Source: a virus
Taxonomy: Duplodnaviria; Caudoviricetes
IMG/VR virus record: IMGVR_UViG_3300025401_000648
Reading direction: 5' to 3' (one strand)
DNA: 64,000 bases
The notes under the pieces were generated by a model. It was not told the origin of the DNA. It saw only the letters and a list, made by a program, of their open reading frames with translations, and did no database searches. This document shows, one piece after another, positions 14,924 through 48,837 of the stretch. The translations under genes were made by a program, and so were the position numbers. Position 1 is the stretch's first letter. The number at the start of each line of letters is the position of its first letter.

Positions 14924-14957
14924 TTTTCATTAAATAATAGGATACCAGGACACTAAA

Positions 14958-16526: not shown

Positions 16527-16531
16527 ACACA

Positions 16532-16569
16532 TAAATACACTATCAATTTGTATGATAGGTACCTAAATA
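16532..16569 (+). promoter_or_regulatory. Late promoter cores plus short hairpin upstream of 16570 gene
   Basis: TAAATA 16532-16537, CTATCA/TGATAG stem 16540-16558 overlapping AGGT, second TAAATA 16564-16569. Confidence 0.5.
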
Positions 16570-18417: not shown

Positions 18418-18451
18418 AATCAATTACGGTAAATATTAAAAACAACGGAGA

Positions 18452-31200: not shown

Positions 31201-31204
31201 TATT

Positions 31205-31726
31205 ATGAACATAGTAAAATTTCCAGATCCTATACTACGAGAAAAAATAGAAGAATTTGATTTTACCAATCCTCCTATTGATCCAGAGCAGTTAGAAAAA
31301 GATATGATAGAACTTATGTTGAAACATGACGGCATAGGTTTGGCAGCAACACAGGTTGGTATTAGGGCCAGGATGTTTGTCATGGGGCATACTGAATATC
31401 CCGAACAGGCACAGGCATTTTATAACCCCGTAGTTGTTGCTAACACAGAAGCAGTGGAAGATTTAGAGGAAGGGTGTTTGAGTTTTCCAGGCATTTTTGT
31501 TAACATTAAAAGGCCTAAGGCAATTAAAGCTAGATGGCAAAATAGTAAAGGAGAGTGGCAAGAAAGTGAATTCGACGGATACAACTGTAAATGTTTCCTA
31601 CATGAATTAGATCATTTAGAAGGCATTGTGTTTCAAGATAGAGTTAGTACATTAAAATGGTCATTGGCTGTTAAAAAATCAAAACCCAAAAAACCAAGAA
31701 CTATAAGAGTAAAAAGGAAATATTAA
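31205..31726 (+). CDS. def: Peptide deformylase
   Basis: GIGLAATQVG, EGCLSFPG, HELDHLEG. Confidence 0.95.
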   Translation: MNIVKFPDPILREKIEEFDFTNPPIDPEQLEKDMIELMLKHDGIGLAATQVGIRARMFVMGHTEYPEQAQAFYNPVVVANTEAVEDLEEGCLSFPGIFVNIKRPKAIKARWQNSKGEWQESEFDGYNCKCFLHELDHLEGIVFQDRVSTLKWSLAVKKSKPKKPRTIRVKRKY

Positions 31727-31728
31727 TA

Positions 31729-34039: not shown

Positions 34040-34447
34040 ATGTCAGCCCTAAGTCAAAGTTTAACATTTCCTATATACAATAGCACTTCAAGTGTACAGG
34101 TTGTATATCCAAATTCAGCCACTAATACTATGAACTATATTAGTTATCAAGTGGAAGGGGATGGCTACTATGGCGCTAGTGATGGATTACATACTGTGAT
34201 GTATACAACCACAGACAACTTTGTTGGCACAGTGACCATGCAGGCCAGTTTGGCCACTGTTCCTGCTGATAGTGATTGGTTTACAGTTAATGGTACTACT
34301 TTTGTTGTTAGTACCAGCACATATTACGATAATATTTCAAGTTCTAGCACAGTAAATTGCTACAATTTCACCGGTAACTTTGTATGGGTCCGCGGAGTCG
34401 TAGCCATCAATAATGGTACTGTCGAGTCCATACTCTATAATCACTAA
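34040..34447 (+). CDS. Probable virion structural protein
   Basis: Beta-rich Thr/Ser composition, late promoter; start moved to ATG 34040. Confidence 0.6.
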   Translation: MSALSQSLTFPIYNSTSSVQVVYPNSATNTMNYISYQVEGDGYYGASDGLHTVMYTTTDNFVGTVTMQASLATVPADSDWFTVNGTTFVVSTSTYYDNISSSSTVNCYNFTGNFVWVRGVVAINNGTVESILYNH

Positions 34448-34520
34448 ATTTCTATTTGGTAAAAGTTGAATAAATAGTTTATATGTTGAGCTACGGCCAA
34501 CAATTTTAAAGTAGACTACT

Positions 34521-34895
34521 ATGAAACTAATGGAATTTTTCGGCAAGCCCGTCGATATCAACAAAGAAATGTCCAAGGATCGTGAAGATTCTAAAATAGG
34601 TGATGATTTATTCTGGTTCATTGTCGATCATGATCGACTACACAAGGATTTCTTTCATCCTATTGCTGTAAAAATTCACCGAGCACAAAAATCTAATAAA
34701 CTAGATAAAGAAGAAATTGTCAAAGATTTTATGCCCATGGTTATTAAAGGGTGTAAAGAGTTTTTTAGAAAACATAAAATGCTAGGCAACATTAAAGAAA
34801 CTTTCCCCAAAGAACTACGCAAAGATGTTTGCGAAAAACTATTTGATCATTATCGTGAAGATATTATCAAAGGCAAATATAAGATAGGAATTTAA
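34521..34895 (+). CDS. Hypothetical late protein (MKLMEFF N-terminus)
   Basis: TAAATA at 34471; 124 aa. Confidence 0.7.
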   Translation: MKLMEFFGKPVDINKEMSKDREDSKIGDDLFWFIVDHDRLHKDFFHPIAVKIHRAQKSNKLDKEEIVKDFMPMVIKGCKEFFRKHKMLGNIKETFPKELRKDVCEKLFDHYREDIIKGKYKIGI

Positions 34896-34896
34896 T

Positions 34897-37800
34897 ATGT
34901 TTCTAAGAGATATTTTTAAACGTATAGTTGTTGAAGGTGGCAATTTAGAATTACCTAATCCTCAAAACGCCAACGAACCACATCGTGCTGATGAAATAGA
35001 TCTACAGGTTCACAACCGTAGTTTTATAGTTCCAATATTAGATAAACTATTAAAAGACATCAACAATTCATTTAAGGCCAAATATAAAACTCCTATTTGG
35101 AGTCAAGACCTTTTGACCAGCAAACAATTTTTAGGCGGCAGTAGTTTACATTTCTTCAATACCAAAGGCATCAACGATCAACAATTTACTGCCAAGAAGC
35201 CCAAGGTAGGTGATATCGATACGCAGTGCAATAAAGAACAAGAAGAACAAATAAAAGAATTTTTAACTGTTTATACAAATAAACAAATTGGTGACACAAC
35301 GTTATTGGGATTTAGCGCAGGCAATGAACAATTCAATGCCCTGTTTCAATTCCAAGATCCGCCAATGAAAATACAGGTTGATTTTGAGTTTGGCCGATAT
35401 AATCCAGAAACAAACACACCAGATGAGTGGTTTAGATTCAGTCATAATAGTGAATGGAATGATATTGATGCCGGTATCAAGGGAGTGTTCCACAAATATC
35501 TTTATAGATCTTTAAGTGGTATATCGTCACGTAGAGCATATATTGCCAAACTGGCAGGACGTGGTAAAGCACGTGCCATACAAATTTCTGATGAACCAGA
35601 AGAAGTTAACTTAATCTCTTTTGCTGTGGCAAGCAAACAAGGTGGTGGTGTTAGTCAAAAATATAAACCCTATATTGATCCAAATACCAATAAGCCCATG
35701 GTGAAAGATAATTTACCAGTATTGGAGCCAGTAGCGCCTGCTGATAGACAATATGAACAAAGATTAAGCAAACAATTTGAAATGTTTTTTGGCCGTGTTC
35801 CTACTCCTGAAGATTCTAAACTACAACAAAGTTTTTTAGGCACATTAGACTTAATTAACAGATATGTTGAAAATTCTAAAAAGGCAGGAATAGTTGAAGA
35901 TTTCTTAGATATTTGTTTTGAACAAGGTAGTCAAATGATTACCCGAGACGATCCTAAACGTGATGCTGAAACTAAATTTATAGCCATAGATGTAATGCTA
36001 GAAAAATTAGGCATGCGATCCATGCGCCCCAAGGCCATTGAAATGGCCAAGGCCTATGAGCAAGATTATAATGATGTCGAAGCATTTAAGAAAGCCAATC
36101 CAGGTGTATCACAACCACGTGCCGCGATGAAAAAAATGGCTGTTCGAGAAGCTGAAGGTGATGCCCCGGCAGTTAAAGCACAACTACGCAAAGGTATGCC
36201 TCACCTTCGTGATCTAAAACCTGCGGACTTTTTAGATCTAATCGATGAGTTACATGATGGCAATGGTAATTTTAAATTACAAAATATTCCATTAAATGTC
36301 AAAATAGATGGATTTGGTGGACGCTTTGGTAAAAACGCAGATGGTAAACCATTCATGGGCACTAGCCGTACTGAGCCACGTTACGAGCCAGGTTTTCTAA
36401 AGTATCATCAAGAAAAAGGCACAACTGATCCAGAAATATTGGGTCGCGCTCAATCTTTTGACAAGTTGTTTGATGAAATGATGAACGCTATTAAAGTAGT
36501 TGATAGTACTTTAGGTCCAGATTTTCTAAAAGATAGACAGGTCACCTGCGAGGTATTATTTTTACCATTTGCCACACAAACTGAAGAAGGCAAATTAAAA
36601 TTTGTAGGTATTGAATATGATCAACTGCCAAAAGGTGTTAATCTTGTGCTGGTACCTTTTCGCATTGTAGAAGGTAGTACAGGTGAGGACATACCTGACA
36701 GTGACAGAGTTATTCAAGAATTATCAAACTTAGGACAGAATGGTAGTGTGGCATTCATGAGCAACAGGCTGGTACAAAAACAAGGCTTGGATGTTACAGA
36801 AATTATCAACCCGTTAGACAACATTGAAGAATTAAAACAAATTGTCAGCGGAGCCGCAGGTAAACGAGACAAAGCCAGTTTACAACTGCGTAGAGAAGTT
36901 GAGGAAAAGTTAAAGCCTATACAAATAGCATTAGAAAAAGCCATTGATGAAGATCCTAACATTATTGGCAAAGACATGTTGGGGCAAGACTACGAGGGTA
37001 TTGTTATCAATAGTCGATTGGGACCAATCAAGGTCACAAGTCAACGCCAAAAAGATATTATCACCGCTAAGAATGCCGCTAAGAAAAATGCCCGTACAGA
37101 ACGCCCACGCAGTGAAAACAAAACAGCAGTAGTGGCCATTGGCAGTTTTGTTGGACATAAAGGCCATCAACAATTATTTGATTACACAATTAAGAAGGCC
37201 AAGGAATTGAATGGCGACCCGTATTTGTTTATGGGCAATGCTGTAGGAAAAGATGATCCAATTCCAGTCGCTGATAAAATTAAAACTTGGCAAATGCTGT
37301 ATCCACAATATGCCAACAATATCAGTGCTGTAACAATGGAAGGTGGAACACTCATGCAGAAAATCAAACATGAGTTAATCAATCCATTGCCAGGTAAACT
37401 GCCACGCTATGATAACATTATTATTATGGTTGGGGAAGATCAGGCCAAGATGCCAATAGCAGGCGCATTGATGAAAGCAGTTAATAAATTTCCAGGCTAT
37501 GAGAATGTCAAAGTTCATTTAGAAGTTACCCCGCGTGGAACTGGAATGAGTTTTACCAAATTACGTGATATTTTAAAAACAGGTAATCCTGATCAAGCAT
37601 TTCAATTATGGAATGATGCGTTTAACGGTGGTCAGTTTGGTGCCAAACAACTACCACCAGAATGGATACGACACCTAATGGATGTAACAAGGAACGGTAT
37701 GGGAATCAAAGAGCCACAAAAACAACAACCTGTTGCTGAACAGAGGTTGTTTAATTCGTTGTTGCGCCCACAAGTAAAGAAAGAAAAGCAAGGTGTGGCG

Positions 37801-38298
37801 GAGACTACAGGAGATAAACCGTTTGATAACATGATGAAAACTATTAAAACGGGTACAAAAAAACAAGCCACCGCAGATAGACGAGAACAAAAAAAGCAAG
37901 ATCAAGAAAGAACAAGAGCCGCTATTAGCAATATGTTTGGCAATAGTATGGATCACTTAAAAAATTTAAAAATTAAAGAGCGAAGTGTGGCAGAAAAGAT
38001 GATGCCTGCCGGTAATTTTTCTAGCACACCCAAAAACAAACTAGGCCCAGCAGGACAGCTAAAGGGCAAGATGAAGCGTCCAGCACGGGCAGGTGATCTA
38101 GTGGGTGGTGCTGAAGAAAGTTATGACGGCGGTAGTTATACCTCACACAAACCAGGATTTGGTGGACAAGGTAGATACACTGATTCTGTGAGAACACAGT
38201 TTAATATTGGTGAAAACAAACTAGTGCCTATTGGTGAAGATCTAGAATTAAAAATGGCCGAAGCTGTGTTAAAACTGATGGAAAATACCTTAAAATGA
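34897..38298 (+). CDS. Multidomain nucleotidyltransferase: pol-beta-type NTase + ligase-type (KxDG) NTase + HxGH cytidylyltransferase/NMNAT-like domain
   Basis: GGSS...GDIDT...QVD; KIDG...CEVLF...EGIVI...IKV; GSFVGHKGH; low-complexity C-tail with QGVAE. Confidence 0.7.
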   Translation: MFLRDIFKRIVVEGGNLELPNPQNANEPHRADEIDLQVHNRSFIVPILDKLLKDINNSFKAKYKTPIWSQDLLTSKQFLGGSSLHFFNTKGINDQQFTAKKPKVGDIDTQCNKEQEEQIKEFLTVYTNKQIGDTTLLGFSAGNEQFNALFQFQDPPMKIQVDFEFGRYNPETNTPDEWFRFSHNSEWNDIDAGIKGVFHKYLYRSLSGISSRRAYIAKLAGRGKARAIQISDEPEEVNLISFAVASKQGGGVSQKYKPYIDPNTNKPMVKDNLPVLEPVAPADRQYEQRLSKQFEMFFGRVPTPEDSKLQQSFLGTLDLINRYVENSKKAGIVEDFLDICFEQGSQMITRDDPKRDAETKFIAIDVMLEKLGMRSMRPKAIEMAKAYEQDYNDVEAFKKANPGVSQPRAAMKKMAVREAEGDAPAVKAQLRKGMPHLRDLKPADFLDLIDELHDGNGNFKLQNIPLNVKIDGFGGRFGKNADGKPFMGTSRTEPRYEPGFLKYHQEKGTTDPEILGRAQSFDKLFDEMMNAIKVVDSTLGPDFLKDRQVTCEVLFLPFATQTEEGKLKFVGIEYDQLPKGVNLVLVPFRIVEGSTGEDIPDSDRVIQELSNLGQNGSVAFMSNRLVQKQGLDVTEIINPLDNIEELKQIVSGAAGKRDKASLQLRREVEEKLKPIQIALEKAIDEDPNIIGKDMLGQDYEGIVINSRLGPIKVTSQRQKDIITAKNAAKKNARTERPRSENKTAVVAIGSFVGHKGHQQLFDYTIKKAKELNGDPYLFMGNAVGKDDPIPVADKIKTWQMLYPQYANNISAVTMEGGTLMQKIKHELINPLPGKLPRYDNIIIMVGEDQAKMPIAGALMKAVNKFPGYENVKVHLEVTPRGTGMSFTKLRDILKTGNPDQAFQLWNDAFNGGQFGAKQLPPEWIRHLMDVTRNGMGIKEPQKQQPVAEQRLFNSLLRPQVKKEKQGVAETTGDKPFDNMMKTIKTGTKKQATADRREQKKQDQERTRAAISNMFGNSMDHLKNLKIKERSVAEKMMPAGNFSSTPKNKLGPAGQLKGKMKRPARAGDLVGGAEESYDGGSYTSHKPGFGGQGRYTDSVRTQFNIGENKLVPIGEDLELKMAEAVLKLMENTLK

Positions 38299-38606
38299 AG
38301 CAATTTAGGATTACTTCAGAAAATAGCCAACCCATAGACAGTAGTGAAGATTGTGTACTACCTCCAGACGACTATGCTCACGAGCTAAAGCGTTTACAGT
38401 ATTTGGGCGGTTTAGGTGGAGAGGCAAGGCTTCAAGAATACCGTGCTCATCAAAATGCGGTAAATAAAGGAAGCAATGTCAGTGTTACAGGTACTGAAAA
38501 GGCTCAACTGATGAAGCAGAATAATATTAAACCAGGAACTCCAGAATGGTTTCAACTTTGGTTTAGTAGACCGTATCTAACACATGAGAAACCAGTAGGA
38601 AAATAA
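38295..38606 (+). CDS. Hypothetical protein
   Basis: 103 aa, ATGA overlap. Confidence 0.75.
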   Translation: MKQFRITSENSQPIDSSEDCVLPPDDYAHELKRLQYLGGLGGEARLQEYRAHQNAVNKGSNVSVTGTEKAQLMKQNNIKPGTPEWFQLWFSRPYLTHEKPVGK

Positions 38607-38607
38607 T

Positions 38608-38973
38608 ATGAGAGCAAAAGAATTTATCCGTGAATCATTAGGGTCACAAAACATGGCCAAGGATCAAGTGACTAGTATTCCTAATGCTCACTATTTTCCT
38701 GATTTGGATAACAGTAGTGGTTATGAAGCATATCGTTGGGGTGTGGCTTTGGCAGGTATGCCAGATTACCCAATGCCGCAAGATGGCACTACAGGACAAA
38801 AATTAGTTACAATTGGCTATACTGAAGCAGATGATTTAATTATAGACAGCACCAGTAAATTATTTGGTGCTAGAAAAGTAAGATTGACCCCACGCGGTAG
38901 TACAGAGTTGAAAGACACAAACAAAACTAGCCCCGTGGCTAATTGGATGGGAAAAGAGAAAAACAATGACTAA
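38608..38973 (+). CDS. Hypothetical protein with CTS-like N-terminus (MRAKEFIRES)
   Basis: Resembles T4 internal-protein capsid-targeting sequence MKTYQEFIAE. Confidence 0.7.
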   Translation: MRAKEFIRESLGSQNMAKDQVTSIPNAHYFPDLDNSSGYEAYRWGVALAGMPDYPMPQDGTTGQKLVTIGYTEADDLIIDSTSKLFGARKVRLTPRGSTELKDTNKTSPVANWMGKEKNND

Positions 38974-41287
38974 CGAATTTAAAAAAATCTCCAAGGGTAC
39001 AGAAACCCGTTATATTCTAGAAAGCGAAACTGCTGGTGCCACTGGCAGTGGATCTATTGCCACTGTGCCAGGTGGTATGGGTGGTGTTCGTAAACGTGGC
39101 GGAAACTTGTTAGCTCAGGAAGGCAATAAAGAAAAAGTTCCTGCTACTAAGCCAAGAAACTTTGTGGCCAAGAATGCCAAGATGGGCGGTGCTGGCGCAC
39201 ACAAGGATAAGAAGAAGGCTGAGAAGCAGGGTGATGTAAAACATCGTAAACCATTTGCCGAACAAGGTGTGGCGGAAGGCTCCGGAGGCAATTGGTATAT
39301 TCGGGTCAACGGTAAAATCCTCAATGACACCAAGTATAAGCCAGAGATTTTCTCATCTGAGGACGAGGCAAGAAGTCACGCAATGAAACTTGCTGATAAG
39401 AAACGCATACCGTTGTCACAAATTAAATTAACAAAAAGTTGGATGGATGCTCCTGAGCAAGGTGTGGCGGAAGGCAGTATATCTGACTTATTGAATAAAG
39501 ATTCAGCATCACCAAAATTCAATGACCATCCAGCACCACTCAAAACAAAACATTCTGGTAGCATTCCAACGCCCTACGAAAAAGGTAGATTAGATGCTCA
39601 TAGAAAAAAGCCATATAACAATATCCACAAAGACAAGCAAGATGCGGAAGATTATAAAACTGGTTATGGGCACGTTAAATCTAAGCAAGGTGTGGCGGAA
39701 GGCTCGGGAAAGAATGTAGTCAAGTCAGTCAAGGTAGGAAACTTTAGACACGATTTGGTCAATACTGGAATGGGTTGGCAGGTTCGTATCTATAACGGTG
39801 ATGAACTTTATGATACTGGGTTGAGCAAGAACTCTGAAGAAAAAGGTTTAGCCGCATTGGATAACTCAGTGGCATACACTAAAAAGCAACTAAACATTAA
39901 AGAGCAAGGTGTGGCGGAAGGCGCTCCAGAACTATTGAAGAAAGAAATGCCACTACATCGTCATGCTGAAAAATTATTAGCACAAAATGGCGTCAGTAAA
40001 GATGATCCAGATTATCGCCATCATCTTGGTAACACGATAAAACATCTTCGTCAGTTTGGTAATATTGATTTGATTAACAAGAGTGACGAGCAAGGTGTGG
40101 CGGAAGAGTGGAGTCAAAAATATAAATCTAGTATCAACTGCTCACATCCAAAAGGTTTCTCACAAAAGGCTCACTGTGCAGGCAAGAAAAAGCACACGGA
40201 AAGTATGATGACAATGGAAGCAGTATGTCCTGATTGTGGTATGTGCCAAACACACGGCAACTTGAATGAGATCAAGAAAGGTGCTAAAGACAGTAATGGA
40301 TTTACCAAATGCTGGCCTGGACATCATGCGGCAGGTACTAAGAAAGGTAAGAACGGTGGACAAGTTCGTAACTGTGTGCCTAATGAAAGTTTGTCAGAAG
40401 GTTGGGGTATGGGCGGTTATGAAACTGCCAAGGTACAGCCAATTGAACCAGGCAAAGGCATTGATAAAGAAATAGGTGAAAATCCAGATTGGTACAATGA
40501 CGAAGCAAATAGCATGAGCACTGCTCAACTAAAGAGTTTGGTCAAACATGCTACTAAGCTCCGCCATGCTGTCAAACAAATGCAAGCACAAGGCGATACA
40601 TTAGAACCTTGGCAACAAAGCAAAGTTACCAAAGCCGCAGATTATTTAGATGCTGTATTCAATGCTGTAGATGACGAACATGACATGGACGAAGAGGAAG
40701 GAGCAGGCGGAATGTTAAGCCCTATATCAGAAGCTCCAATTGATATGGATCCGTCCGAACCAATGAATCCAATGATATACGGACATCAAGGTGTTAATCC
40801 TGCTAAACTAAAAGATCGAATGATGAGGGCCGCTGGTCAATTAAAAGATCTAGCACAAAGAGCAGAATCAGGAAGTGCGTTAGGCTGGGAAAGTATCACT
40901 CGTCACTTTGAAGAATTGGCAATGAACATTGAACAAATACGTCATGCTTTAGAAGAGCTGGCTAACAAACGTAAGAAAGGTGGCATTGGTTCAAGAGGTA
41001 TTGATCCACACATTGGCGAAAGTGATCATCCTGATGAAAAAGAAGATAAAGCACTTATTCGTAAAATGGTCAAGGCACAAGCATTGAAACAAGAAGACAG
41101 TTATATGGCTGAGCTACAGGCCAAACTAGCTGAAAAGATTCCCAAGAATGCTCCTGTAGATGTTTATATCAAAGATTTTGAAAAATCCAATGCTCCACAG
41201 TTCCGTGGTAAGACAAAGGAAAAACGTCGTCAAATGGCCATTGCCGCCAGTTACGGTGCTAAAAATCCTAGCAAGAAGAAAAAATGA
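38966..41287 (+). CDS. Modular polyprotein, probable internal head protein
   Basis: 773 aa; five QGVAE linkers separating unrelated ~60-70 aa modules, followed by basic Cys/Lys-rich modules. Confidence 0.75.
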   Translation: MTNEFKKISKGTETRYILESETAGATGSGSIATVPGGMGGVRKRGGNLLAQEGNKEKVPATKPRNFVAKNAKMGGAGAHKDKKKAEKQGDVKHRKPFAEQGVAEGSGGNWYIRVNGKILNDTKYKPEIFSSEDEARSHAMKLADKKRIPLSQIKLTKSWMDAPEQGVAEGSISDLLNKDSASPKFNDHPAPLKTKHSGSIPTPYEKGRLDAHRKKPYNNIHKDKQDAEDYKTGYGHVKSKQGVAEGSGKNVVKSVKVGNFRHDLVNTGMGWQVRIYNGDELYDTGLSKNSEEKGLAALDNSVAYTKKQLNIKEQGVAEGAPELLKKEMPLHRHAEKLLAQNGVSKDDPDYRHHLGNTIKHLRQFGNIDLINKSDEQGVAEEWSQKYKSSINCSHPKGFSQKAHCAGKKKHTESMMTMEAVCPDCGMCQTHGNLNEIKKGAKDSNGFTKCWPGHHAAGTKKGKNGGQVRNCVPNESLSEGWGMGGYETAKVQPIEPGKGIDKEIGENPDWYNDEANSMSTAQLKSLVKHATKLRHAVKQMQAQGDTLEPWQQSKVTKAADYLDAVFNAVDDEHDMDEEEGAGGMLSPISEAPIDMDPSEPMNPMIYGHQGVNPAKLKDRMMRAAGQLKDLAQRAESGSALGWESITRHFEELAMNIEQIRHALEELANKRKKGGIGSRGIDPHIGESDHPDEKEDKALIRKMVKAQALKQEDSYMAELQAKLAEKIPKNAPVDVYIKDFEKSNAPQFRGKTKEKRRQMAIAASYGAKNPSKKKK

Positions 41288-41568
41288 AAATTGTAGAGTT
41301 GATCAATGAGAGTGATGACAATTGGGATGAGTTATCTCAAAAAGTATCAAAAAAATCAGCTGATCAAGCAATCAAACATCTTCAAAAGGATTTAAAAGAT
41401 CCTATTGGATATGAAGCAGTGGACCATATGATGACCAGTATAGCTAAAAAATACAATATGACTCCTCATGACCTACATTTATTATTTGTAGAAAAAGTTG
41501 GCACTACACCAGATGTTTGGATTAGAAAAATCGGTCCAAGTTTAGACAAGTGGATTAACAAAAAATGA
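41284..41568 (+). CDS. Hypothetical protein with CTS-like N-terminus (MKIVELINES)
   Basis: ATGA overlap; KKYNMTPHDLHLLFVEK..TPDVWI domain homologous to next gene. Confidence 0.7.
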   Translation: MKIVELINESDDNWDELSQKVSKKSADQAIKHLQKDLKDPIGYEAVDHMMTSIAKKYNMTPHDLHLLFVEKVGTTPDVWIRKIGPSLDKWINKK

Positions 41569-42002
41569 AAATCCGTGAACTAGTTGAGGCTATGAAGCCG
41601 GAACATGTGTCAGGTAAGGAAAAACCTGGTGCCGTAGATGCATTAGAAAAAAGATTATTGGCTGCTAAAAAATCTGGTACAAAATTCAACTACGACGTCA
41701 TTGATCAAATGATGCAAAAAATCTGTAGAGAATTTAATCTCACAGGCGATAAACTTCATAATGATTTTGTAAAGAAACATAATCTTGTTCCAGACAATTG
41801 GATTAAGAAAGATCTTAACGTAGAAGAAAACTTTGCTGATGGTAAGCATCCAGGACGTAAAGGATTAGCCAAACGCAGTGGTGTAAATACAAAAGCCAGT
41901 GTTAGTAGCCTACGCAAAACTGCCAAACACAGCACAGGTGAAAAACAACGTATGGCACATTGGTTGGCCAATATGAAAGCAGGGAGAGCCAAGAAAAAAT
42001 GA
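41565..42002 (+). CDS. Hypothetical protein with CTS-like N-terminus (MKIRELVEA)
   Basis: REFNLTGDKLHNDFVKKH..VPDNWI domain plus basic C-terminal module after NVEEN. Confidence 0.7.
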   Translation: MKIRELVEAMKPEHVSGKEKPGAVDALEKRLLAAKKSGTKFNYDVIDQMMQKICREFNLTGDKLHNDFVKKHNLVPDNWIKKDLNVEENFADGKHPGRKGLAKRSGVNTKASVSSLRKTAKHSTGEKQRMAHWLANMKAGRAKKK

Positions 42003-42418
42003 GAGCATCAGAATTCATAATTGAAACAGCCGCTTGGCAAAAATCATCAGGTAAAAATAAAAATGGTGGTTTAAACAAAAAAGGTGTGGCCAGTTATCGT
42101 AGAGAGCATCCTGGATCAAAATTACAAACTGCTGTGACCACTAAGCCCAGCAAGTTGAAAAAAGGTAGCAAAGCCAGTAAACGTCGAGCAAGTTTTTGTG
42201 CTCGTATGAAAGGTATGAAAAAACATCGTACAGGAGCCTCCACCAAGAGAGATCCAAACAGTCGCATAAACAAAAGTCTACGCAAGTGGCATTGTGAAAG
42301 TGTTGAGCAATTATACGGCGTGTTACAAGCATTGAGAGAAGCAGCCAATCCAGCACAGCAGGCTGCTATTGCTATCAATATGAAGAAGAATCATAAAAAG
42401 CCTAAGAATACAAAATAA
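41999..42418 (+). CDS. Basic hypothetical protein with CTS-like N-terminus (MRASEFIIET)
   Basis: Start moved to ATG 41999 (ATGA overlap); GGLNKKG...RRASFCARM...SLRKWHC module. Confidence 0.7.
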   Translation: MRASEFIIETAAWQKSSGKNKNGGLNKKGVASYRREHPGSKLQTAVTTKPSKLKKGSKASKRRASFCARMKGMKKHRTGASTKRDPNSRINKSLRKWHCESVEQLYGVLQALREAANPAQQAAIAINMKKNHKKPKNTK

Positions 42419-42422
42419 AAAT

Positions 42423-42752
42423 ATGTCAAATAACTATAATTGGATTATTTCAAAATTAGATTGTATTCCCAATGCCAATGGTTTGGAAAATGTGATTCAA
42501 TCAATACATTGGAGATTTGGTGGTACTGACGGCACTAACTATGCCGATGTATTTGGGGAAGTTATACTGGATAGTCCGGATCCTGATTCATTCATATTAT
42601 ATAAAGATTTGAGTGAAGAGCAAATTATAAACTGGATCACCGCATCATTAGGTGAAGAAGCAATAATATCTTTTAAGAAAACAATAGATGCCAAAATTTC
42701 CGCAATAGTCAACCCACCCGTGGTAAATCCTGCGTTTCCTTGGGTTATTTAA
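42423..42752 (+). CDS. Hypothetical protein, possibly fibre-associated
   Basis: YNWIISKLDC...IHWRF...LPW-like end; 109 aa. Confidence 0.6.
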   Translation: MSNNYNWIISKLDCIPNANGLENVIQSIHWRFGGTDGTNYADVFGEVILDSPDPDSFILYKDLSEEQIINWITASLGEEAIISFKKTIDAKISAIVNPPVVNPAFPWVI

Positions 42753-42778
42753 ATTAATATCTAAAAATTCCAAAACAC

Positions 42779-42807
42779 TTGATCTCCTGACTTCACTAGC
42801 GTATAGT
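42779..42807 (+). promoter_or_regulatory. Sigma70-type promoter
   Basis: TTGATC-17-TATAGT. Confidence 0.55.
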
Positions 42808-42829
42808 AAGTGAATAAGGAGATTTTTTT

Positions 42830-43102
42830 ATGAGTAAAGCGTTCGGCGCCCCAGAACAGGCAAAGATTAAACAGATTGTAGCAGAAGGTATGACTGTGAT
42901 GCAGGAAATTCAAGACCTTACTGAGGGGTTGAATGATACAATTAAAGCAGTAGCCGAAGAATTGGAAGTCAAACCCAGTGTTATTAAGCGGGCCATTAAA
43001 ATTGCCCAAAAAGATCAATGGGATCAAGTATTCCGTGAATTTGATGATTTGGAAACTATCGTTGATATTGCCGGACACGCAAATCGTCGACAAGACGTTT
43101 GA
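42830..43102 (+). CDS. Small DNA-binding protein (T4 DsbA-like)
   Basis: EIQDLTEGLNDTIKAVAEELEVKPSVIKRAIKIA helical pattern; SD AAGGAG. Confidence 0.55.
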   Translation: MSKAFGAPEQAKIKQIVAEGMTVMQEIQDLTEGLNDTIKAVAEELEVKPSVIKRAIKIAQKDQWDQVFREFDDLETIVDIAGHANRRQDV

Positions 43103-43134
43103 TAAAAGTACTTGATATTAATTAACCAATTTAC

Positions 43135-43163
43135 TTGATCTATCTTACACAGATCTGTAATAT
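43135..43163 (+). promoter_or_regulatory. Sigma70-type promoter
   Basis: TTGATC-17-TAATAT. Confidence 0.5.
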
Positions 43164-43208
43164 AACTAATAACTGATGTATATCAGCATACAACAAAAGG
43201 AAATAAAG

Positions 43209-43481
43209 ATGAAAACAATTAGTCAAGAAACAAAAACATACAAGCTATTGACCGCATTAAAGAGCGGCGAAAAGTTTACAGCATCACAAGCTGAAAAGCG
43301 TTTTGGTATCAAGAACATCAGCGCAGAAGCAAGTCGTCTTCGTCAAGCTGGACACGCTATCTATGCTCGTAGCCGTAAAGCTGGCAACGGTGTTAATGTA
43401 ACTGAGTATCACTTGGATCGTCCAACCCGCAAGATGGTTGCTTTGGCATACAAGGCACAAAGCCTAGGCATTACACTGTAA
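43209..43481 (+). CDS. Small winged-HTH-like protein
   Basis: LLTALKSGEKFTASQAEKRFGIKNISAEASRLRQAGHAIY; SD AAGGA; followed by terminator. Confidence 0.6.
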   Translation: MKTISQETKTYKLLTALKSGEKFTASQAEKRFGIKNISAEASRLRQAGHAIYARSRKAGNGVNVTEYHLDRPTRKMVALAYKAQSLGITL

Positions 43482-43501
43482 TTTGAGCTTGCTCAGTAAT
43501 C

Positions 43502-43523
43502 AACCCGCTTAGGCGGGTTTTTT
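43502..43523 (+). terminator. Intrinsic terminator between convergent genes
   Basis: AACCCGC-TTAG-GCGGGTT followed by TTTT. Confidence 0.85.
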
Positions 43524-44583
43524 ATTGACTTTTGTAGTCTCGGTATCGTTGTCCGGACACTTCGCCTGAGAATAATTTTTTAACATATTCCAGACCTTTG
43601 GTCAATGCGTCTCTATCTTTGACAGCGCGGGCTTGACTGGCATCTGTACTAGCCTTGTCACGTTTGGGCGCAGTGATAGCATGTTGCGATTTTTCTACAT
43701 AGTGATTGGCAAATTGATTAATAAAGTCATCGGCAGAACTGAATCGTTCCAAATCACCCTTACCAAACATTCCATTTAATTCACAGCTACGAGCAAACCC
43801 CTTAACACCATTAACCAAACGTTCTACATTAACATTCATTGTGTCAACACCAGGATTGGCCTTTAGTAGTGGATCAATCTTGGGATTTTCTATTCCAAGT
43901 TCTTCTGCCTCATGTAGGAATATGTCTAATACCCAGCGTTTGATATCTTGCCCTACTGTGTGTAGGTTGTAATTCTTAAGCGTCTTGCCATAATTAACTT
44001 TTTTTCCATTTACAGTTTTGTATTGGATGCCCTTGTGCTGCAGGTTAACTGGAATCAATTCGCTCATTGTGGCAAAGATATTACCGTTTAGTAAACCTTT
44101 TAATCCATGTTCTCCTGTGGCACGATAACGGCCCCATTCGGCAGTCTTTTCTGGATGCGGCATAATATCTACTTGTACCTTACTACCATCACCCAATATG
44201 AACATGGGCTGTGCTCCTCGACTTTCAGCTTTATCAATATAGGATAAATTTGAATCTTGAATAAATTTATTGATTAATGTGCCCCAGCGACCCTGAACTT
44301 GCCCACTGGTCATATCATCATATTCTGGTAAATCTGGAATAATAACCTGTAGATCCATGTCACCATATATGGTGTTTTCTGGATCATCGAGTTCATGATA
44401 AGCGGCGGATCCTGTGGGATGACCAACTTTCATAGGTCCAAGCCCCTGTTGTTTTAACCAAGGATTGAAATCTTTAAGGAAATTATCTACTGCAACAATT
44501 CCCTGTTTTACCACTTTGGCTTTGATGCCAGGATTATCTCCGGTGGTCCACCCGCCTTCAACAATTAATTCTCTAATTTTCAT
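43522..44583 (-). CDS. Pol-beta superfamily nucleotidyltransferase with CTS-like N-terminus (MKIRELIVEGG)
   Basis: PTGS...YGDMDLQV...VQVDI catalytic pattern; TAAATA late core 7 nt before ATG 44583. Confidence 0.7.
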   Translation of the reverse strand: MKIRELIVEGGWTTGDNPGIKAKVVKQGIVAVDNFLKDFNPWLKQQGLGPMKVGHPTGSAAYHELDDPENTIYGDMDLQVIIPDLPEYDDMTSGQVQGRWGTLINKFIQDSNLSYIDKAESRGAQPMFILGDGSKVQVDIMPHPEKTAEWGRYRATGEHGLKGLLNGNIFATMSELIPVNLQHKGIQYKTVNGKKVNYGKTLKNYNLHTVGQDIKRWVLDIFLHEAEELGIENPKIDPLLKANPGVDTMNVNVERLVNGVKGFARSCELNGMFGKGDLERFSSADDFINQFANHYVEKSQHAITAPKRDKASTDASQARAVKDRDALTKGLEYVKKLFSGEVSGQRYRDYKSQ

Positions 44584-44606
44584 AGTAAAGTATTTATTCA
44601 AAACAG

Positions 44607-45006: not shown

Positions 45007-47676
45007 ATGAGTTATGTTGATGCCATTTGGGATCGCGAAAAAGACATTGTCAAAGTCATTGAGCGTGATCCAAAACAGGGTAGACTCTATCAAGAGTACA
45101 ATGCCCGCTATCTATTTTATTATCCAGACCAACGAGGAAAATTCAAAAGCATCTTTGGAGAAAACTTATCCAAAGTAACTGCTCGTAGCTGGAAAGAATT
45201 CATTAAAGAACAAAAAATCCATTCTTCTCATAAACTATATGAGAGCGATATCAATCCTGTATTCCGTTGTTTAGAAGAAAACTATCTTGGCAAAGATGCT
45301 CCAAAATTAAATGTAGCATTTTTTGATATTGAGGTGGACTTTGATCCAGAACGTGGCTACGCAAGTCCAGACGATGCGTTTATGCCAATTACTGCGATTG
45401 CTGTCCACCTACAATGGATGGATACTCTAGTATGCCTTGCTGTTCCTCCAAAGACTTTAACCATGGAACAAGCACAAGATCAAGTTAAAGAATTTCCCAA
45501 CACTATACTGTTTGAAACAGAATACGAAATGTTGGATACATTCTTAAATCTAATTGAAGATGCTGATGTGCTAAGTGGATGGAACAGTGAAGGGTTTGAT
45601 ATTCCCTATACTGTTAATCGTGTTACAAAAGTTCTAAGTAAAGAAGATACCCGTAGATTTTGTCTTTGGGGAGCCATGCCAAAGAAACGTGAATTTGAAA
45701 AATATGGAAAAACTGCTGTTACCTATGACCTTGTTGGTCGTGTTCACCTTGATAGTCTCGAGTTGTACAGAAAATATACCTATGAAGAACGCCACACATA
45801 TCGACTGGATGCAATTGGAGAGATGGAAATAGGCGAAAGCAAGACTGTTTACGAAGGTACGTTGGACCAGTTATACAATAATGATTTCCGTAAATTTATT
45901 GAATATAATAGACAAGACTGTGCCTTGCTTGATAAGTTGGATAAAAAGTTAAAATTCATTGACCTTGCTAATACTGTTGCTCACGAAAATACTGTGTTAC
46001 TACAAACTACAATGGGTGCTGTGGCTGTTACAGAACAGGCTATTGTAAATGAAGCACATCACAGAGGTATGATGGTACCAAGTCGCCCCAAACGAGATGA
46101 TACCGTAAGTAATCAGGCGGCAGGTGCGTATGTTGCTTATCCAAAAAAAGGCATCCATGACTACATTGGATCAATGGATATTAACAGTTTGTACCCGTCT
46201 GTGATTCGTGCGCTGAACATGGGTCCAGAAACGATTGTGGGTCAGTTACGCCAAGATTATACTAAAGAAGAAATTGAAAACAAAATGGCCAAGAAAGAAA
46301 GTTTCGCTGGCGCATGGGAAGGTAAGTTTGGCAGTAATGAATATGAATTTGTTATGAACCGAGATCGAAGTCATGATATTATCATTGATTGGGAGAATGG
46401 CGAAACCACTATTATGAGTGGTGCTCAAATTTATGAACTTATCTTTGAAAGTAATAATCCATGGATGCTAAGTGCCAATGGTACTATCTTTACCTATGAA
46501 AAAGAAGGTATCATTCCTGGTTTACTAAAACGTTGGTATAGTGAACGTAAAGAAATGCAGGCCAAGCTCAAAGAAGCAATTAAAGCGGAGAATAAAATTG
46601 AAGAAGAATACTGGGACAAAAGACAACTGGTTAAAAAAATTAACCTCAATAGCCTATATGGTGCTATTCTTAACGCTGGTTGTAGGTTCTTTGATAATCG
46701 TATTGGACAATCCACAACTCTTTCCGGACGTGGTATCGCCCGCCATATGGCCGCAAAGATAAATGAAGTTATCACTGGAGAGTACAACCATATTGGTAAA
46801 AGCATTATCTATGGTGATACTGACTCTGCCTACTTTAGTGCTTATTCATCTTTAAAGAACGAAATTGCCAAAGGTGAAATTCCTTGGAACAAGGACACAG
46901 TGGTTCAACTATATGATACCATTGCTGAAGAAGTAAATTCAACATTCCCAGATTTCATGCTAGAAGCACATCACTGTCCTCGCAGCCGTGGCGATGTTAT
47001 CCGTGCTGGTCGTGAAATTGTTGCTATCAAAGGCCTGTTTATTACCAAGAAGCGTTATGCCGTACTGTATTATGACAAGGAAGGCAAACGCAGTGACGTA
47101 GATGGCAAGCCAGGTAAGATCAAGGCCATGGGCTTGGATTTGAAACGCAGTGACACTCCTGAATTTATGCAGAAGTTTTTGGAAGAAGTTCTTACCAAAG
47201 TACTCAATGGTAGTGAAGAAAAAGAAATTCTAGAGATGATCAGTGAATTCCGTACAGAATTTAAAGCCCGACCAGGTTGGGAGAAAGGAAGTCCAAAACG
47301 TGCCAACAACATTACAGAATATCAAGAAAAAGAGAAGAAATTTGGCAAGGCTAATATGCCTGGTCATGTTAGAGCAAGTATTAATTGGAATACGCTCAAA
47401 AGAATGAATGGTGACAAATACAGTCAGCAAATTGTTGATGGTATGAAAGTTATCGTTTGTAAACTAAAGGGTAACCCCTTGGGATATACATCAGTAGCAT
47501 ATCCTGTGGACGAACTACGGTTGCCTAAATGGTTTCAAGAACTTCCGTTTGATCATGAAGAAATGGAAGCTACCATTATTAACAATAAGATTGAAAACCT
47601 TATTGGCGTATTAGAATGGGACTTGAGCAGTACTACTGAGACTAATACGTTTGGCAACTTGTTTTCGTTTGATTAA
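45007..47676 (+). CDS. Family B DNA polymerase (T4 gp43-like)
   Basis: Exo FFDIEVD, GWNSEGFD; motif A DINSLYPS, motif B KKINLNSLYG, motif C YGDTDS; start moved to ATG 45007. Confidence 0.96.
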   Translation: MSYVDAIWDREKDIVKVIERDPKQGRLYQEYNARYLFYYPDQRGKFKSIFGENLSKVTARSWKEFIKEQKIHSSHKLYESDINPVFRCLEENYLGKDAPKLNVAFFDIEVDFDPERGYASPDDAFMPITAIAVHLQWMDTLVCLAVPPKTLTMEQAQDQVKEFPNTILFETEYEMLDTFLNLIEDADVLSGWNSEGFDIPYTVNRVTKVLSKEDTRRFCLWGAMPKKREFEKYGKTAVTYDLVGRVHLDSLELYRKYTYEERHTYRLDAIGEMEIGESKTVYEGTLDQLYNNDFRKFIEYNRQDCALLDKLDKKLKFIDLANTVAHENTVLLQTTMGAVAVTEQAIVNEAHHRGMMVPSRPKRDDTVSNQAAGAYVAYPKKGIHDYIGSMDINSLYPSVIRALNMGPETIVGQLRQDYTKEEIENKMAKKESFAGAWEGKFGSNEYEFVMNRDRSHDIIIDWENGETTIMSGAQIYELIFESNNPWMLSANGTIFTYEKEGIIPGLLKRWYSERKEMQAKLKEAIKAENKIEEEYWDKRQLVKKINLNSLYGAILNAGCRFFDNRIGQSTTLSGRGIARHMAAKINEVITGEYNHIGKSIIYGDTDSAYFSAYSSLKNEIAKGEIPWNKDTVVQLYDTIAEEVNSTFPDFMLEAHHCPRSRGDVIRAGREIVAIKGLFITKKRYAVLYYDKEGKRSDVDGKPGKIKAMGLDLKRSDTPEFMQKFLEEVLTKVLNGSEEKEILEMISEFRTEFKARPGWEKGSPKRANNITEYQEKEKKFGKANMPGHVRASINWNTLKRMNGDKYSQQIVDGMKVIVCKLKGNPLGYTSVAYPVDELRLPKWFQELPFDHEEMEATIINNKIENLIGVLEWDLSSTTETNTFGNLFSFD

Positions 47677-47684
47677 TTTAATCA

Positions 47685-47713
47685 TTGACTTTTTCGCTTG
47701 ACCTAAATAAACT
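47685..47713 (+). promoter_or_regulatory. Sigma70-type promoter with embedded TAAATA
   Basis: TTGACT-17-TAAACT; TAAATA at 47704-47709. Confidence 0.55.
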
Positions 47714-47731
47714 TATATAAAGGAAAATATT

Positions 47732-48466
47732 ATGCAAGACTTACTTAAAGATATCGTGTCGCACACAAATAAACTGGGATTTCTTAACATTGTTAAGATC
47801 ACAGGCACTGATGAAGAAACATTAATCGACAGCATGGCTGAAGACCGTACTGTTGTTATGTACGCAAAAACTGCCAATCCTTATCCACAATTAATTGGTA
47901 GTTTTGGTATGCCACAACTTGAAAAATTACGCTACTTGTTAGAAGGTAAAGAATATCAAGAAGATGCCAAGATTGATTTGGTAACTGCTACCCGTAACAA
48001 TGAAACAATTCCGGTTGGACTTCACTTTGAAAACAAAGATGGCGATTTCAAAAATGATTATCGTTTCATGAACAAGGAAGTCATTGACGAAAAATTGAAA
48101 ACAGTTAAATTCAAAGGTGTCAATTGGAATGTCACAGTTAGCCCAAGTGTTAATTCAACACAACGTTTCCAATTCCAGTCAGGTGCTAATACAGAACATA
48201 CACACTTCTTGGCTAAAACAGATGGCGATAAATTGATTTTCTCATTCGGTGATGTAGCAAGTCACGCTGGTGAGTTTGTGTTTGCCACAGGCGTTACAGG
48301 TAAAATTAGCAAGTCCTGGACATATCCAGTTGTGCCTGTACTGAGCATTTTGAAAATTGCCGATGCTAACAATACAAAAATGAGTTTTAGTGATGGTGGT
48401 GCTCTACGTCTTGAATTAGACAGCGGCATTGCTACTTATGAATACATTGTTCCAGCCAAGGTATGA
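47732..48466 (+). CDS. Sliding clamp (gp45/PCNA-like)
   Basis: 244 aa next to PolB, beta-rich, ends GIATYEYIVPA; clamp loader present in window. Confidence 0.65.
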   Translation: MQDLLKDIVSHTNKLGFLNIVKITGTDEETLIDSMAEDRTVVMYAKTANPYPQLIGSFGMPQLEKLRYLLEGKEYQEDAKIDLVTATRNNETIPVGLHFENKDGDFKNDYRFMNKEVIDEKLKTVKFKGVNWNVTVSPSVNSTQRFQFQSGANTEHTHFLAKTDGDKLIFSFGDVASHAGEFVFATGVTGKISKSWTYPVVPVLSILKIADANNTKMSFSDGGALRLELDSGIATYEYIVPAKV

Positions 48467-48837
48467 TAAAGGGTATAAATCAGGGCGGGAGATATATTAG
48501 TGTTACCGGCGGAATGCCGGGCAGTAATTATATTAACAATTACTCTGGCGCACAAGGTATCGGTAACATGCGATTCAATACTTCTACACAAAATGTGGAA
48601 GTATGGGATGGCAATAATTGGATGACCTTACAAACATCTTATGCTACAGTTCAATTAGATAGTGAAGCAACAAGTCTACTAGATTGGGCTAAAGAAAAAC
48701 GTGATGAAGAATGGAAGATGCAGGAGTTGATTAAAACCAATCCTGCTGTTAAAATAGCGTATGACAATGTTTTGAAAGCACAAGAACAATTAAAGATAAC
48801 AACTATATTGAGTACAGATGAAAAAACCACCAGTTAA
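48463..48837 (+). CDS. Hypothetical protein
   Basis: 124 aa, ATGA overlap. Confidence 0.7.
   Translation: MIKGINQGGRYISVTGGMPGSNYINNYSGAQGIGNMRFNTSTQNVEVWDGNNWMTLQTSYATVQLDSEATSLLDWAKEKRDEEWKMQELIKTNPAVKIAYDNVLKAQEQLKITTILSTDEKTTS

Follow-up and report, generated by a model that had tools for sequence, protein, structure and literature searches.

Putative capsid-targeting leaders and prohead-protease junctions in a variable candidate cargo locus of an uncultured jumbo phage

Introduction

The closest described counterparts of the leaders analyzed here are found in phage T4, whose internal proteins IPII and IPIII begin with MKTYQEFIAE↓A (arrow, cleavage position), as the first-pass annotation of our DNA had noted; gp24 and gp22 begin with MAKINELLRE↓S and MLKEQLIAE↓A, respectively (NC_000866). 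T4 gp21 cleaves after L/I-x-E, and in the capsid-targeting sequence (CTS), residues 4 and 7 serve targeting, with residues 8 and 10 required for processing (PMC9026906). According to Mullaney and Black (1996), as cited in PMC9026906, PMC3012670 and PMC5694885, the CTS of IPI, IPII and IPIII and the propeptides of gp24, gp22, gp67, gp68 and Alt are removed by gp21. For the ejection and inner-body propeptides of phiKZ, 201phi2-1 and SPN3US, gp175/gp245 cut after (S/A/G)-x-E (PMC5694885, PMC7411985).

Our literature search on capsid-targeting leaders in cyanophages, jumbo phages and metagenomes returned only the work on T4, phiKZ and SPN3US. Phage-packaged proteins are normally identified only through virion proteomics of cultured phages. 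Sequence-based prediction would extend to capsid-packed, probably host-delivered proteins in uncultured phages such as the water-sample phage described here. We analyzed a 64,000-nucleotide stretch of its DNA (IMG/VR record IMGVR_UViG_3300025401_000648; hereafter the window), with emphasis on a block of small and multi-module genes between positions 34521 and 44583.

Results

The first-pass annotation had grouped seven N-termini of this block under the pattern M-[KR]-x-x-E-[FL]-x(1-3)-E. All seven were found at the positions it gave, and five conform to the pattern: MRAKEFIRE (38608), MKIVELINE (41284), MKIRELVE (41565), MRASEFIIE (41999) and MKIRELIVE (44583, minus strand); those at 34897 and 34521 do not. 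A scan of all six frames of the 64-kb window with M-[KR]-x-x-E-[FLIV]-x(1-3)-E returned these five matches and none besides. All five are the starts of long open reading frames, lie within 6 kb, begin 2–19 codons past a stop and open frames of 94–353 codons. The chance expectation from shuffles was 0.21 matches anywhere in the six frames of the window and approximately 0.016 at the N-termini of its 78 genes. The motif is absent from all other called genes of the window. The leader observation is real and far beyond chance.

Leaders are 8–19 residues long, and the T4-like ending is present in the five strict matches and in two longer variants that close with V-x-E and I-x-E. The first of these, at 34897, reads MFLRDIFKRIVVE↓GG and lies outside the strict motif, with V-x-E followed by GG. 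The N-terminus at 34521, MKLMEFFGK, has no Glu within 1–3 residues and retains the putative targeting half only. Its gene (34521..34895, + strand) encodes a 124-aa basic protein. Across 84 homologues M-x-L-x-E-F-F-G is conserved, 77 carry a leader-like core near the start in which M1, L3, E5, F6 and F7 are invariant, and no conserved hydrophobic-x-Glu site follows the core.

Three of the five strict matches belong to proteins of 94–139 aa. The 121-aa protein (38608..38973, +) has its leader at 38608-38634 and a predicted cut before Ser10; the leader is kept in 102 of 106 homologues. Glu9 carries 3.4 bits of information content and the positions after it about 1 bit, and a hypervariable linker comes next. 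Its AF2 model had a low pLDDT of 63, and because of this low confidence the structure was not used as evidence. The 94-aa protein (41284..41568, +; leader at 41284-41310) is paralogous to the N-module encoded by the gene that follows, at 41565. The 139-aa protein (41999..42418, +; leader at 41999-42025; pI 11) matches Pfam DUF6321 (PF19846) with 61.2 bits against a gathering cut-off of 28.5. In T4-like cyanophages, the DUF6321 module occurs inside multi-module proteins, after VDE↓G or TNE↓S; podovirus DUF6321 homologues, which served as a control, are without a leader.

Leaders are attached to at least four families without detectable mutual similarity by PHROG, Pfam and profile comparison, and relatives place still other cargo behind them. 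Across hundreds of metagenomic homologues, conservation ends exactly at the Glu, and within one family MRAKEF-type and MKIxE-type leaders interchange. The conserved positions are 3, 6, 7 and 9, and also 5; residues 4, 7, 8 and 10 of the T4 CTS, shifted by one, fall on the first four of these. Synonymous codons vary among leaders while the residues are kept, and an mRNA-level start feature was rejected for this reason. A secretion signal was likewise rejected because the peptide is acidic and has no hydrophobic core. The syntenic 50 kb of the cultured phage Phosso, a second control, contained no leader match.

Modules that follow a leader in one protein lie inside multi-module proteins elsewhere, and in both settings an identical hydrophobic-x-Glu junction stands ahead of them. 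The 145-aa protein (41565..42002, +), matched by 2240 cluster representatives, carries its leader at 41565-41588, followed by module a, a VEE↓N junction with its Glu codon at 41826-41828, and the very basic module b (41829-41999). Upstream of module b, P1 is Glu in 155/155 cases and P3 is V, L, M or I in 93%, versus a 20% background; these cases comprise 107 distinct contexts, and the upstream element is an N-terminal leader in 4 of the 155. Since P1 Glu and the hydrophobic P3 are kept over 107 contexts and P2, P4 and P5 are free, the constraint acts at the protein level. The equivalence of leader and junction holds also for DUF6321 and for the GGW nucleotidyltransferase described below.

Two larger proteins extend this pattern. 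The 1133-aa multi-enzyme protein (34897..38298, +), with PHROG and Pfam hits, consists of a nucleotidyltransferase-like N-domain, a middle domain and a cytidylyltransferase-like domain; it has a 13-aa leader ending in VVE↓GG (34897-34935, +) and a QGVAE↓T junction (37789-37803, +). Its relatives begin with MLLNEFF..ITE↓GG (fragment L006), MLLSELF..LIE↓GG (fragment G006) and, in phage CP21, MKLSELILILE↓GG; the Vibrio phage Va1 homologue is leaderless and begins M-GG, at the predicted mature residue. The 773-aa multi-module basic protein (38966..41287, +) has a 19-aa leader ending in ILE↓S (38966-39022, +), QGVAE junctions at 39263, 39458, 39686, 39905 and 40091 (+), and NCVPNE↓S..LSE↓G farther along. 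If cut, it is predicted to give mostly basic fragments of 62–85 aa and a 393-aa C-terminal piece. The reading of ILE, PNE and VEE motifs as module borders, proposed in the first-pass annotation, is confirmed: module 1 of the 773-aa protein, which follows ILE↓S, is a separate 59-aa frame behind a canonical leader in L006/L013, NCVPNE↓S is borne out by relatives, and at VEE↓N a Glu precedes module b without exception. Related multi-module proteins contain GNAT and deaminase domains. The sequences directly after the predicted Glu cut sites are SLGSQNMAK, GGWTTGDNPGIK, NFADGK.PGR and TAAWQK, and that of the capsid protein is AATAGATSSGNVATLNR.

The 353-aa protein (43522..44583, minus strand) has its leader at 44583-44557, with GGW directly after the predicted cut. 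Both its fold and its catalytic motifs confirm it as a nucleotidyltransferase of the Pol-beta superfamily. The leader core is present in 74 of 81 homologues, mostly ending ..E↓GGW. Its AF2 model has a pLDDT of 89 overall, with residues 1-14 below 50 and the leader disordered, and Foldseek retrieved Pol beta/lambda, OAS1 and cGAS (E 6e-5 to 1e-3, TM ~0.3). All 44 sequences compared keep G58, S59, D75, D77 and D139, giving the G-S ... D-x-D ... D motifs. Two Pol-beta nucleotidyltransferases had been proposed for the block; the second, the N-domain of the 1133-aa protein, is a candidate by motif likeness, in that it shares GGSS, GDID.Q and QVD in the same order with the 353-aa protein and both mature parts start with GG. 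An hhalign profile comparison of the 353-aa family with this N-domain was not significant (probability 2%).

DnaJ, peptide deformylase and ClpA genes stand directly upstream of the block here, in the related fragment L118 and in Phosso, and in relatives the locus between ClpA and the polymerase is plastic, varying highly even among close relatives. A virion-structural-like protein (34040..34447, +; PHROG 14467 'virion structural protein', E 5e-12) is encoded immediately ahead of the block and has its own ATAAATA at 34011. Further copies of ATAAATA, by position a candidate late promoter core, lie ahead of the block (34470..34476, +) and of the minus-strand gene (44591..44597, minus strand). The + strand of the window holds 7 copies versus 18 expected, and five of the seven are intergenic, just upstream of 16570 (tail-fibre), 25614 and 34040 (virion), 34521 (block) and 60547. 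The statement that most genes of the block follow TAAATA cores was too broad, as ATAAATA precedes 34040, 34521 and the minus-strand gene 44583 and no others there. The remaining genes are packed tightly, with overlapping stops and starts, and include two without leaders: one for a 103-aa protein in the same operon (38295..38606, +) and the operon's last gene, for a 109-aa acidic protein (42423..42752, +). A GC-rich hairpin between the convergent genes (43502..43519) is likely a bidirectional terminator. Sigma-70-type promoter matches in the block were not above shuffles (41 vs 33 ± 7).

Head genes were read in relatives of the same lineage, whose polymerase is 83-87% identical; those of the phage itself are located beyond the window. 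The first five related fragments examined were without head genes; among five large fragments of the lineage, three (G006, G007 and G010) encode a gp21-type Peptidase_S77 (E 1e-28) adjoining a gp23-type capsid protein. An S77 protease of the lineage is encoded at L104:8955-9587. In G006, matching predicted sites stand at T4-equivalent positions in three head proteins: the protease begins with MNKIQYLRE↓N and the scaffold with MIMDAFNQLVE↓S, while the capsid protein has KYLGE↓A shortly before the part that aligns with mature T4 gp23. From homology and site conservation we infer that the S77 protease would be specific for hydrophobic-x-Glu. The 773-aa protein contains, at residues 14-34, a copy of the predicted G006 capsid-protein cut site that extends to either side of the Glu (score 60 versus a best of 45 among 300 shuffles). 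Leader-bearing genes adjoin the portal gene in the G006 head cluster. Some leader-bearing G006 genes lie amid small genes without assigned timing, a point against the reading proposed below. When the G006 protease was modelled in complex with a leader-bearing substrate cut down to its first 40 residues, the score was 0.00; this was counted neither way.

Megablast of the block against 50,697 GenBank phages gave no match, and an exact-word scan of IMG/VR had no hit. Searches by tblastn with the 121-aa protein, the 353-aa protein and module b gave none among cultured phages, and no cultured model phage in that set carries these cargo families.

Discussion

Taken together, these results make it likely that the N-terminal leaders are capsid-targeting propeptides of the T4 type, that the junctions are sites of the head protease and that both belong to a late, variable locus of cargo genes. 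The first half of the leader (M, basic, hydrophobic, x, acidic, hydrophobic, hydrophobic) would dock the new protein on the assembling prohead core, and the closing hydrophobic-x-Glu would be the cut site of the gp21-type prohead protease, freeing the mature protein inside the head. Junctions of the form [V/L/M/I]-x-Glu, such as QGVAE, would punctuate the multi-module proteins in the same manner. Because leaders and polyproteins share this motif, a module could therefore be delivered as its own gene or as a polyprotein link with the same mature product. The genes from 34521 to 42752 and the convergent gene at 44583 would form a late-transcribed, rapidly reshuffled locus resembling the T4 internal-protein loci and larger. 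Its cargo would be of two kinds: small proteins of very basic character (DUF6321, module b), and enzymes, with a cytidylyltransferase-like domain and either one or two nucleotidyltransferases of the Pol-beta type. By analogy with T4, the proteins would bind the core, be cleaved, stay in the head and finally be ejected into the host. The proposal of a packaged, processed and injected block that includes enzymes is partly supported, by the modular leaders, the junctions, the S77/gp23 sites, the copied capsid-protein site, the candidate late-promoter motifs and one nucleotidyltransferase; the 34521 protein lacks a conserved cut site, and the operon genes at 38295 and 42423 have no leader.

The sites could be genuine prohead-protease sites in proteins that are not injected effectors. 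The 773-aa multi-cut protein in particular could be a core or scaffold-like component, its products expelled or condensing DNA as peptides: N-termini of this kind, along with many cuts, are also found in T4 gp22, gp67 and gp68 (PMC9026906), the predicted fragments are mostly basic, the capsid-protein site is copied in this very protein, and leader-bearing genes stand beside the G006 portal gene. Enzyme cargo is ill-suited to a scaffold, however, whether the nucleotidyltransferase here or the GNAT and deaminase domains of related multi-module proteins; the locus also varies among close relatives, unlike essential scaffold genes, and G006 has a separate gp22-like scaffold. We regard this explanation as unlikely. 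It is also conceivable that each module begins structurally with the conserved Glu and P3 residue, which would then mark no cut site.

We give still less credence to the leader as a recognition tag for another machine, such as a phage ClpA-type unfoldase or a modifying enzyme. The upstream DnaJ, deformylase and ClpA genes, the ClpS-like gene that G006 has three positions ahead of a gene with a leader, and a radical-SAM gene adjoining the leader-bearing homologue in phage CP21 point that way, but an N-terminal degron or tag leaves the identical junctions inside polyproteins and the copied capsid-protein site unexplained, Phosso retains the DnaJ-deformylase-Clp synteny yet has no leader, and no radical-SAM family is recorded among the block genes of the related fragments L012, L013 and L118. 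We consider it very improbable that the leader and QGVAE codons act mainly at the DNA level, as recombination cassettes for module shuffling, and that the peptide they encode serves no function itself. The six QGVAE copies are identical over their first 14 nucleotides (five over 15 or more) in an AT-rich genome, AAAAAATGA is common to three gene junctions, and the locus is heavily reshuffled; against this, leader codons differ synonymously with residues retained, and the P1 and P3 constraint before module b acts on protein. Recombination cassettes and capsid propeptides are not mutually exclusive.

Beyond the T4-type propeptide reading of this locus, we tentatively entertain, at slightly less than even chances, a broader one: that an abundant, uncultured aquatic lineage of T4-related jumbo phages uses a code of a 9-residue N-terminal address and [V/L/M/I]-x-Glu junctions to load into the capsid a large, quickly evolving, combinatorially shuffled repertoire of small basic proteins and enzymes, decoy copies of the capsid-protein site included. 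The enzymes would be nucleotidyltransferases, acetyltransferases, deaminases and possibly cell-wall hydrolases, encoded as single genes or as polyproteins cut by the head protease. Should this hold, one could read from sequence which effectors thousands of uncultured phages inject. A leader-plus-junction rule tied to the head protease would let packaged proteins be predicted from metagenomes, flag candidate counter-defence enzymes such as a packaged Pol-beta/cGAS-like nucleotidyltransferase, and provide natural tags for loading foreign proteins into non-model phage capsids. It would also explain the in-frame QGVAE repeat array of the window as protease-cut linkers.

Like the T4 CTS, the leader is a short N-terminal peptide of the same pattern that closes with hydrophobic-x-Glu, is common to unrelated, often basic proteins in variable loci, and occurs in a lineage with a gp21-type protease, seen in relatives. 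Unlike T4, the phage is a jumbo phage of about 350 kb by CheckV completeness estimates and lies far from the Tevenvirinae, with a polymerase nearest to Phosso, Atu_ph07 and Rak2-like phages, and its leader falls short of the T4 length by one residue. One MAG label points to a freshwater picocyanobacterium as the possible host. In Pfam and PHROG the cargo gave no hit to the families of T4 internal proteins; it would work like these proteins but does not belong to their families. It includes enzymes and multi-module polyproteins with predicted internal junction cuts, and its families number thousands of metagenomic proteins.

Encapsulin cargo-loading peptides are short and transferable and bring unrelated cargo into an HK97-fold shell; they are usually C-terminal and not removed, and neither a protease nor DNA delivery takes part. 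The leader is a comparably short, transferable address to a shell interior, but it is N-terminal and its removal by a protease is predicted. Iyer, Burroughs, Anand, de Souza and Aravind reportedly described, in 2017, polyvalent proteins of phages and conjugative elements as module chains presumed to enter together with the DNA and to be split up by processing. The proteins here likewise string together unrelated modules, both enzymatic and small ones, but their predicted junctions carry the head-protease motif together with an N-terminal capsid address, and no embedded peptidase domain was seen. The likeness to phiKZ, 201phi2-1 and SPN3US is that these are also giant phages and have a distant homologue of gp21, which cleaves proteins of the head and ejection proteins behind Glu at multiple sites per propeptide; phiKZ-type propeptides mostly exceed 100 residues and have a small P3, whereas the leaders here have 8–19 residues and a hydrophobic P3, as in T4.

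A leader motif confined to one gene block

A six-frame scan of the 64-kb window returned exactly five matches to the leader motif M-[KR]-x-x-E-[FLIV]-x(1-3)-E, at 38608, 41284, 41565, 41999 and 44583 (minus strand), all of which lie 2–19 codons past a stop and open ORFs of 94–353 codons. Chance would give 0.21 matches anywhere (shuffles) and about 0.016 at the N-termini of 78 genes. The first-pass annotation had assigned T4-like capsid-targeting N-termini to seven genes; all seven were found in place and these five fit the motif, whereas gene 34897 carries a longer variant, MFLRDIFKRIVVE/GG (a slash marks the predicted cut after Glu), and gene 34521 only the first half, MKLMEFFGK. Among 84 homologues of the latter's protein, M-x-L-x-E-F-F-G is near-invariant and a subsequent hydrophobic-x-Glu is absent. 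The motif is not equally common outside the block (34521–42752 plus the convergent gene 44583): no other called gene of the window has it.

The window comes from a T4-related myovirus and holds baseplate and tail-fibre genes (5468–20179), a ClpA-type ATPase (31729–33993), and clamp loader, endolysin, DnaJ, peptide deformylase and family-B DNA polymerase genes. No close relative was found among GenBank phages; by polymerase, the nearest jumbo phages are Sinorhizobium phage Phosso (52%), Agrobacterium phage Atu_ph07 (47%) and Rak2-like phages (44%), and related IMG/VR fragments point, by their CheckV completeness estimates, to a genome size of about 350 kb. The lineage is common in metagenomes, since polymerase search patterns matched at least 599 IMG/VR contigs, 595 of them encoding a relative (82–92% polymerase identity among the 80 matches listed). 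One homologue of the 38608–38973 protein, P0125, bears the label of a Synechococcaceae MAG (WB6_1A_059), which may reflect either a freshwater picocyanobacterium as host or a binning artefact.

Equivalence of leaders and internal junctions

The leader is a module separate from protein folds. The five to seven leader-type proteins fall into at least four unrelated families, the 94-aa protein (41284) and the N-module of the 145-aa protein (41565) being the sole paralogous pair. In the 121-aa family (38608) the leader persists in 102 of 106 homologues, even where overall identity is as low as 30%; conservation falls from 3.4 bits of information at Glu9 to about 1 bit ahead of a variable-length linker, and MRAKEF-type and MKIxE-type leaders are swapped within the family. 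The leader core is present in 74 of 81 homologues of the 353-aa protein (44583), mostly ending E/GGW, with E9, G10 and G11 invariant in 44 aligned sequences; the AF2 model has a pLDDT of 89 overall and below 50 for residues 1–14. Homologues of the 1133-aa N-domain (34897) begin MKLSELILILE/GG in Campylobacter phage CP21 and M-GG, exactly the predicted mature end, in Vibrio phage Va1. Podovirus homologues of DUF6321 (139 aa, 41999) carry no leader; the gene of one adjoins a capsid gene.

Leader and internal junctions are, moreover, the same thing. The 145-aa protein consists of leader, module a, VEE/N and module b, and its search gave 2240 matches among 1.8 billion cluster representatives. In the best 150 of these, Glu precedes module b in 155 of 155 occurrences and P3 is V/L/M/I in 93% (20% background), with P2, P4 and P5 free across 107 distinct contexts; this bears out VEEN as a module border. 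Module b also stands directly behind an N-terminal leader in four proteins (e.g., MRAKEFITE/NFADGK) and elsewhere often behind QGVAE. The module itself (41829–41999; NFADGK.PGRKGLAKRSGV...) is 80–95% identical in most of the best of the 2240 representatives, has no Pfam family and gave no tblastn match in 50,697 GenBank phages. DUF6321 is preceded by IIE/T in the window, by leaders in metagenomic proteins, and by VDE/G or TNE/S within multi-module proteins of T4-like cyanophages, one of them annotated as structural. A Cys-rich WS.KYK.SI.C module follows QGVAE/E in the window and leaders elsewhere.

Given this equivalence, the 773-aa protein (38966) reads as a 19-aa leader (ILE/S), five mostly basic modules of 62–85 aa each closed by QGVAE, and further modules beyond. 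The proposed ILES border holds: in relative L006/L013 the first module stands alone in a 59-aa gene, preceded by MKISELLE/S. GNAT and deaminase domains occur in long relatives. All six QGVAE junctions (37789, 39263, 39458, 39686, 39905 and 40091) share their first 14 nucleotides, CAAGGTGTGGCGGA, and five are identical further on. This stretch is GC-rich, though the genome is 39% GC, and QGVAE is entirely absent from G006, a large same-lineage fragment; the pattern suggests recent spread by recombination.

Prohead protease and capsid-protein sites

T4 gp21 cleaves after L/I-x-E. For packaging, the N-terminal 10 residues of IPIII are enough; within them, positions 4 and 7 act in targeting and positions 8 and 10 in processing (PMC9026906; also PMC3012670, PMC5694885). 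In NC_000866, the N-termini are MKTYQEFIAE/A (IPII/IPIII), MAKINELLRE/S (gp24), MLKEQLIAE/A (gp22) and MEGLIE/A (gp67). Shifted by one residue, the targeting and processing positions equal conserved window leader positions 3, 6, 7 and 9; position 5 is conserved too.

The phage's own head genes lie outside the window, and protease and capsid sites were taken from same-lineage fragments. Peptidase_S77 (E ~1e-28) sits beside a Gp23-family capsid gene in three of five large ones (polymerase 83–87% identical). G006 was read throughout. Its protease, with 32% identity to T4 gp21, begins MNKIQYLRE/N, a scaffold-like protein begins MIMDAFNQLVE/S, and the capsid protein has sites ALLE/G, VVLE/N and KYLGE/A, the last just N-terminal to the region aligned with mature T4 gp23. 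These sites match the window's junctions, and KYLGE/AATAGAT.SG..AT is copied, on both sides of the Glu, in residues 14–34 of the 773-aa protein (local score 60; maximum 45 in 300 shuffles). The shared pattern, [KR]Y[LI].E/..TAGAT.SG..AT, lies at 39005–39067 and, in the lineage's major capsid protein (L104:10823–10885), at the predicted maturation site; the copy may serve as a decoy or as a mimic for docking. Leader-bearing genes of G006 occur beside the portal gene, after the capsid gene and in the polymerase-proximal block. Another leader-bearing gene (352 aa, MRAKEFLKE...) sits among small genes at G006 47114–49662 (in L108), remote from the head and polymerase loci; three genes upstream of it is a gene for a ClpS-like adaptor.

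Locus structure and putative cargo

ATAAATA, a candidate late-promoter core of the lineage, is depleted overall (7 plus-strand copies, 18 expected) and clusters immediately ahead of structural genes. Five of the seven plus-strand copies (9891, 16531, 25588, 34011, 34470, 60511 and 63701) are intergenic and closely precede tail-fibre, virion and block genes; of the minus-strand copies (44597 and 4576), one is separated by 7 nt from the ATG of gene 44583, on its upstream side. Block genes overlap or abut, and a GC-rich hairpin (43502–43519) separates the convergent units. Three consecutive gene junctions (41276–41291, 41557–41572 and 41991–42006) share AAAAAATGA: a poly-Lys C-terminus is followed by a stop that overlaps the next ATG, after which comes a leader. 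The A-run could permit coupling or slippage fusing neighbours; mature products would be unchanged if the leader is cut.

The variable block is immediately preceded by DnaJ-like, deformylase and ClpA-type genes in a conserved order (window 30382–33993; L118:487–4040; L119:14032–17794). The cultured phage Phosso shares this order and keeps the polymerase, with no leader match in the syntenic 50 kb. The ClpA–polymerase interval varies greatly among relatives: in L006 the 94-, 145- and 139-aa genes are missing and the counterpart of the 773-aa gene encodes 263 aa, in G006 two genes take the place of the 1133-aa gene, and L118 carries about nine consecutive leader-bearing genes.

The proposal of two pol-beta nucleotidyltransferases stands for the 353-aa protein, which is modelled as a Pol-beta-type fold (best structural matches Pol beta/lambda, OAS1 and cGAS) with invariant G-S, D-x-D and D motifs. 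The 1133-aa N-domain has the same motif order, but profile comparison with the 353-aa family was not significant; this protein also has a cytidylyltransferase-like domain. DUF6321 (pI 11.1) and the module b-bearing 145-aa protein (pI 10.1) resemble DNA-associated internal proteins in strong basicity.

Alternative readings and comparison with T4

These data are probably best explained by a T4-type capsid-addressing and protease-processing system acting on a variable late cargo locus; for injection of the cargo into the host, the chances appear evenly balanced. Less probably, some members, chiefly the 773-aa protein, have a core or scaffold role, or the leaders and junctions are purely DNA-level shuffling cassettes. 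A further alternative, that the leader marks proteins for a modifying enzyme or for the ClpA-type machine encoded nearby, would leave both the internal junctions and the capsid cut-site copy unexplained. The leader-bearing homologue CP21_014 of Campylobacter phage CP21 (L001:1981–4140) directly follows radical-SAM gene CP21_015, an adjacency that may be coincidence though it bears on the modifying-enzyme alternative; no radical-SAM family is annotated in the blocks of L012, L013 or L118.

A literature search found no published description of this leader/junction system. The principle of capsid addressing with processing is already known from T4. What is new relative to T4 is that the lineage is one of jumbo phages distant from the T-even group, that the metagenomic proteins involved number in the thousands, that the putative cargo includes enzymes and that, as read from sequence, one site apparently doubles as polyprotein punctuation.
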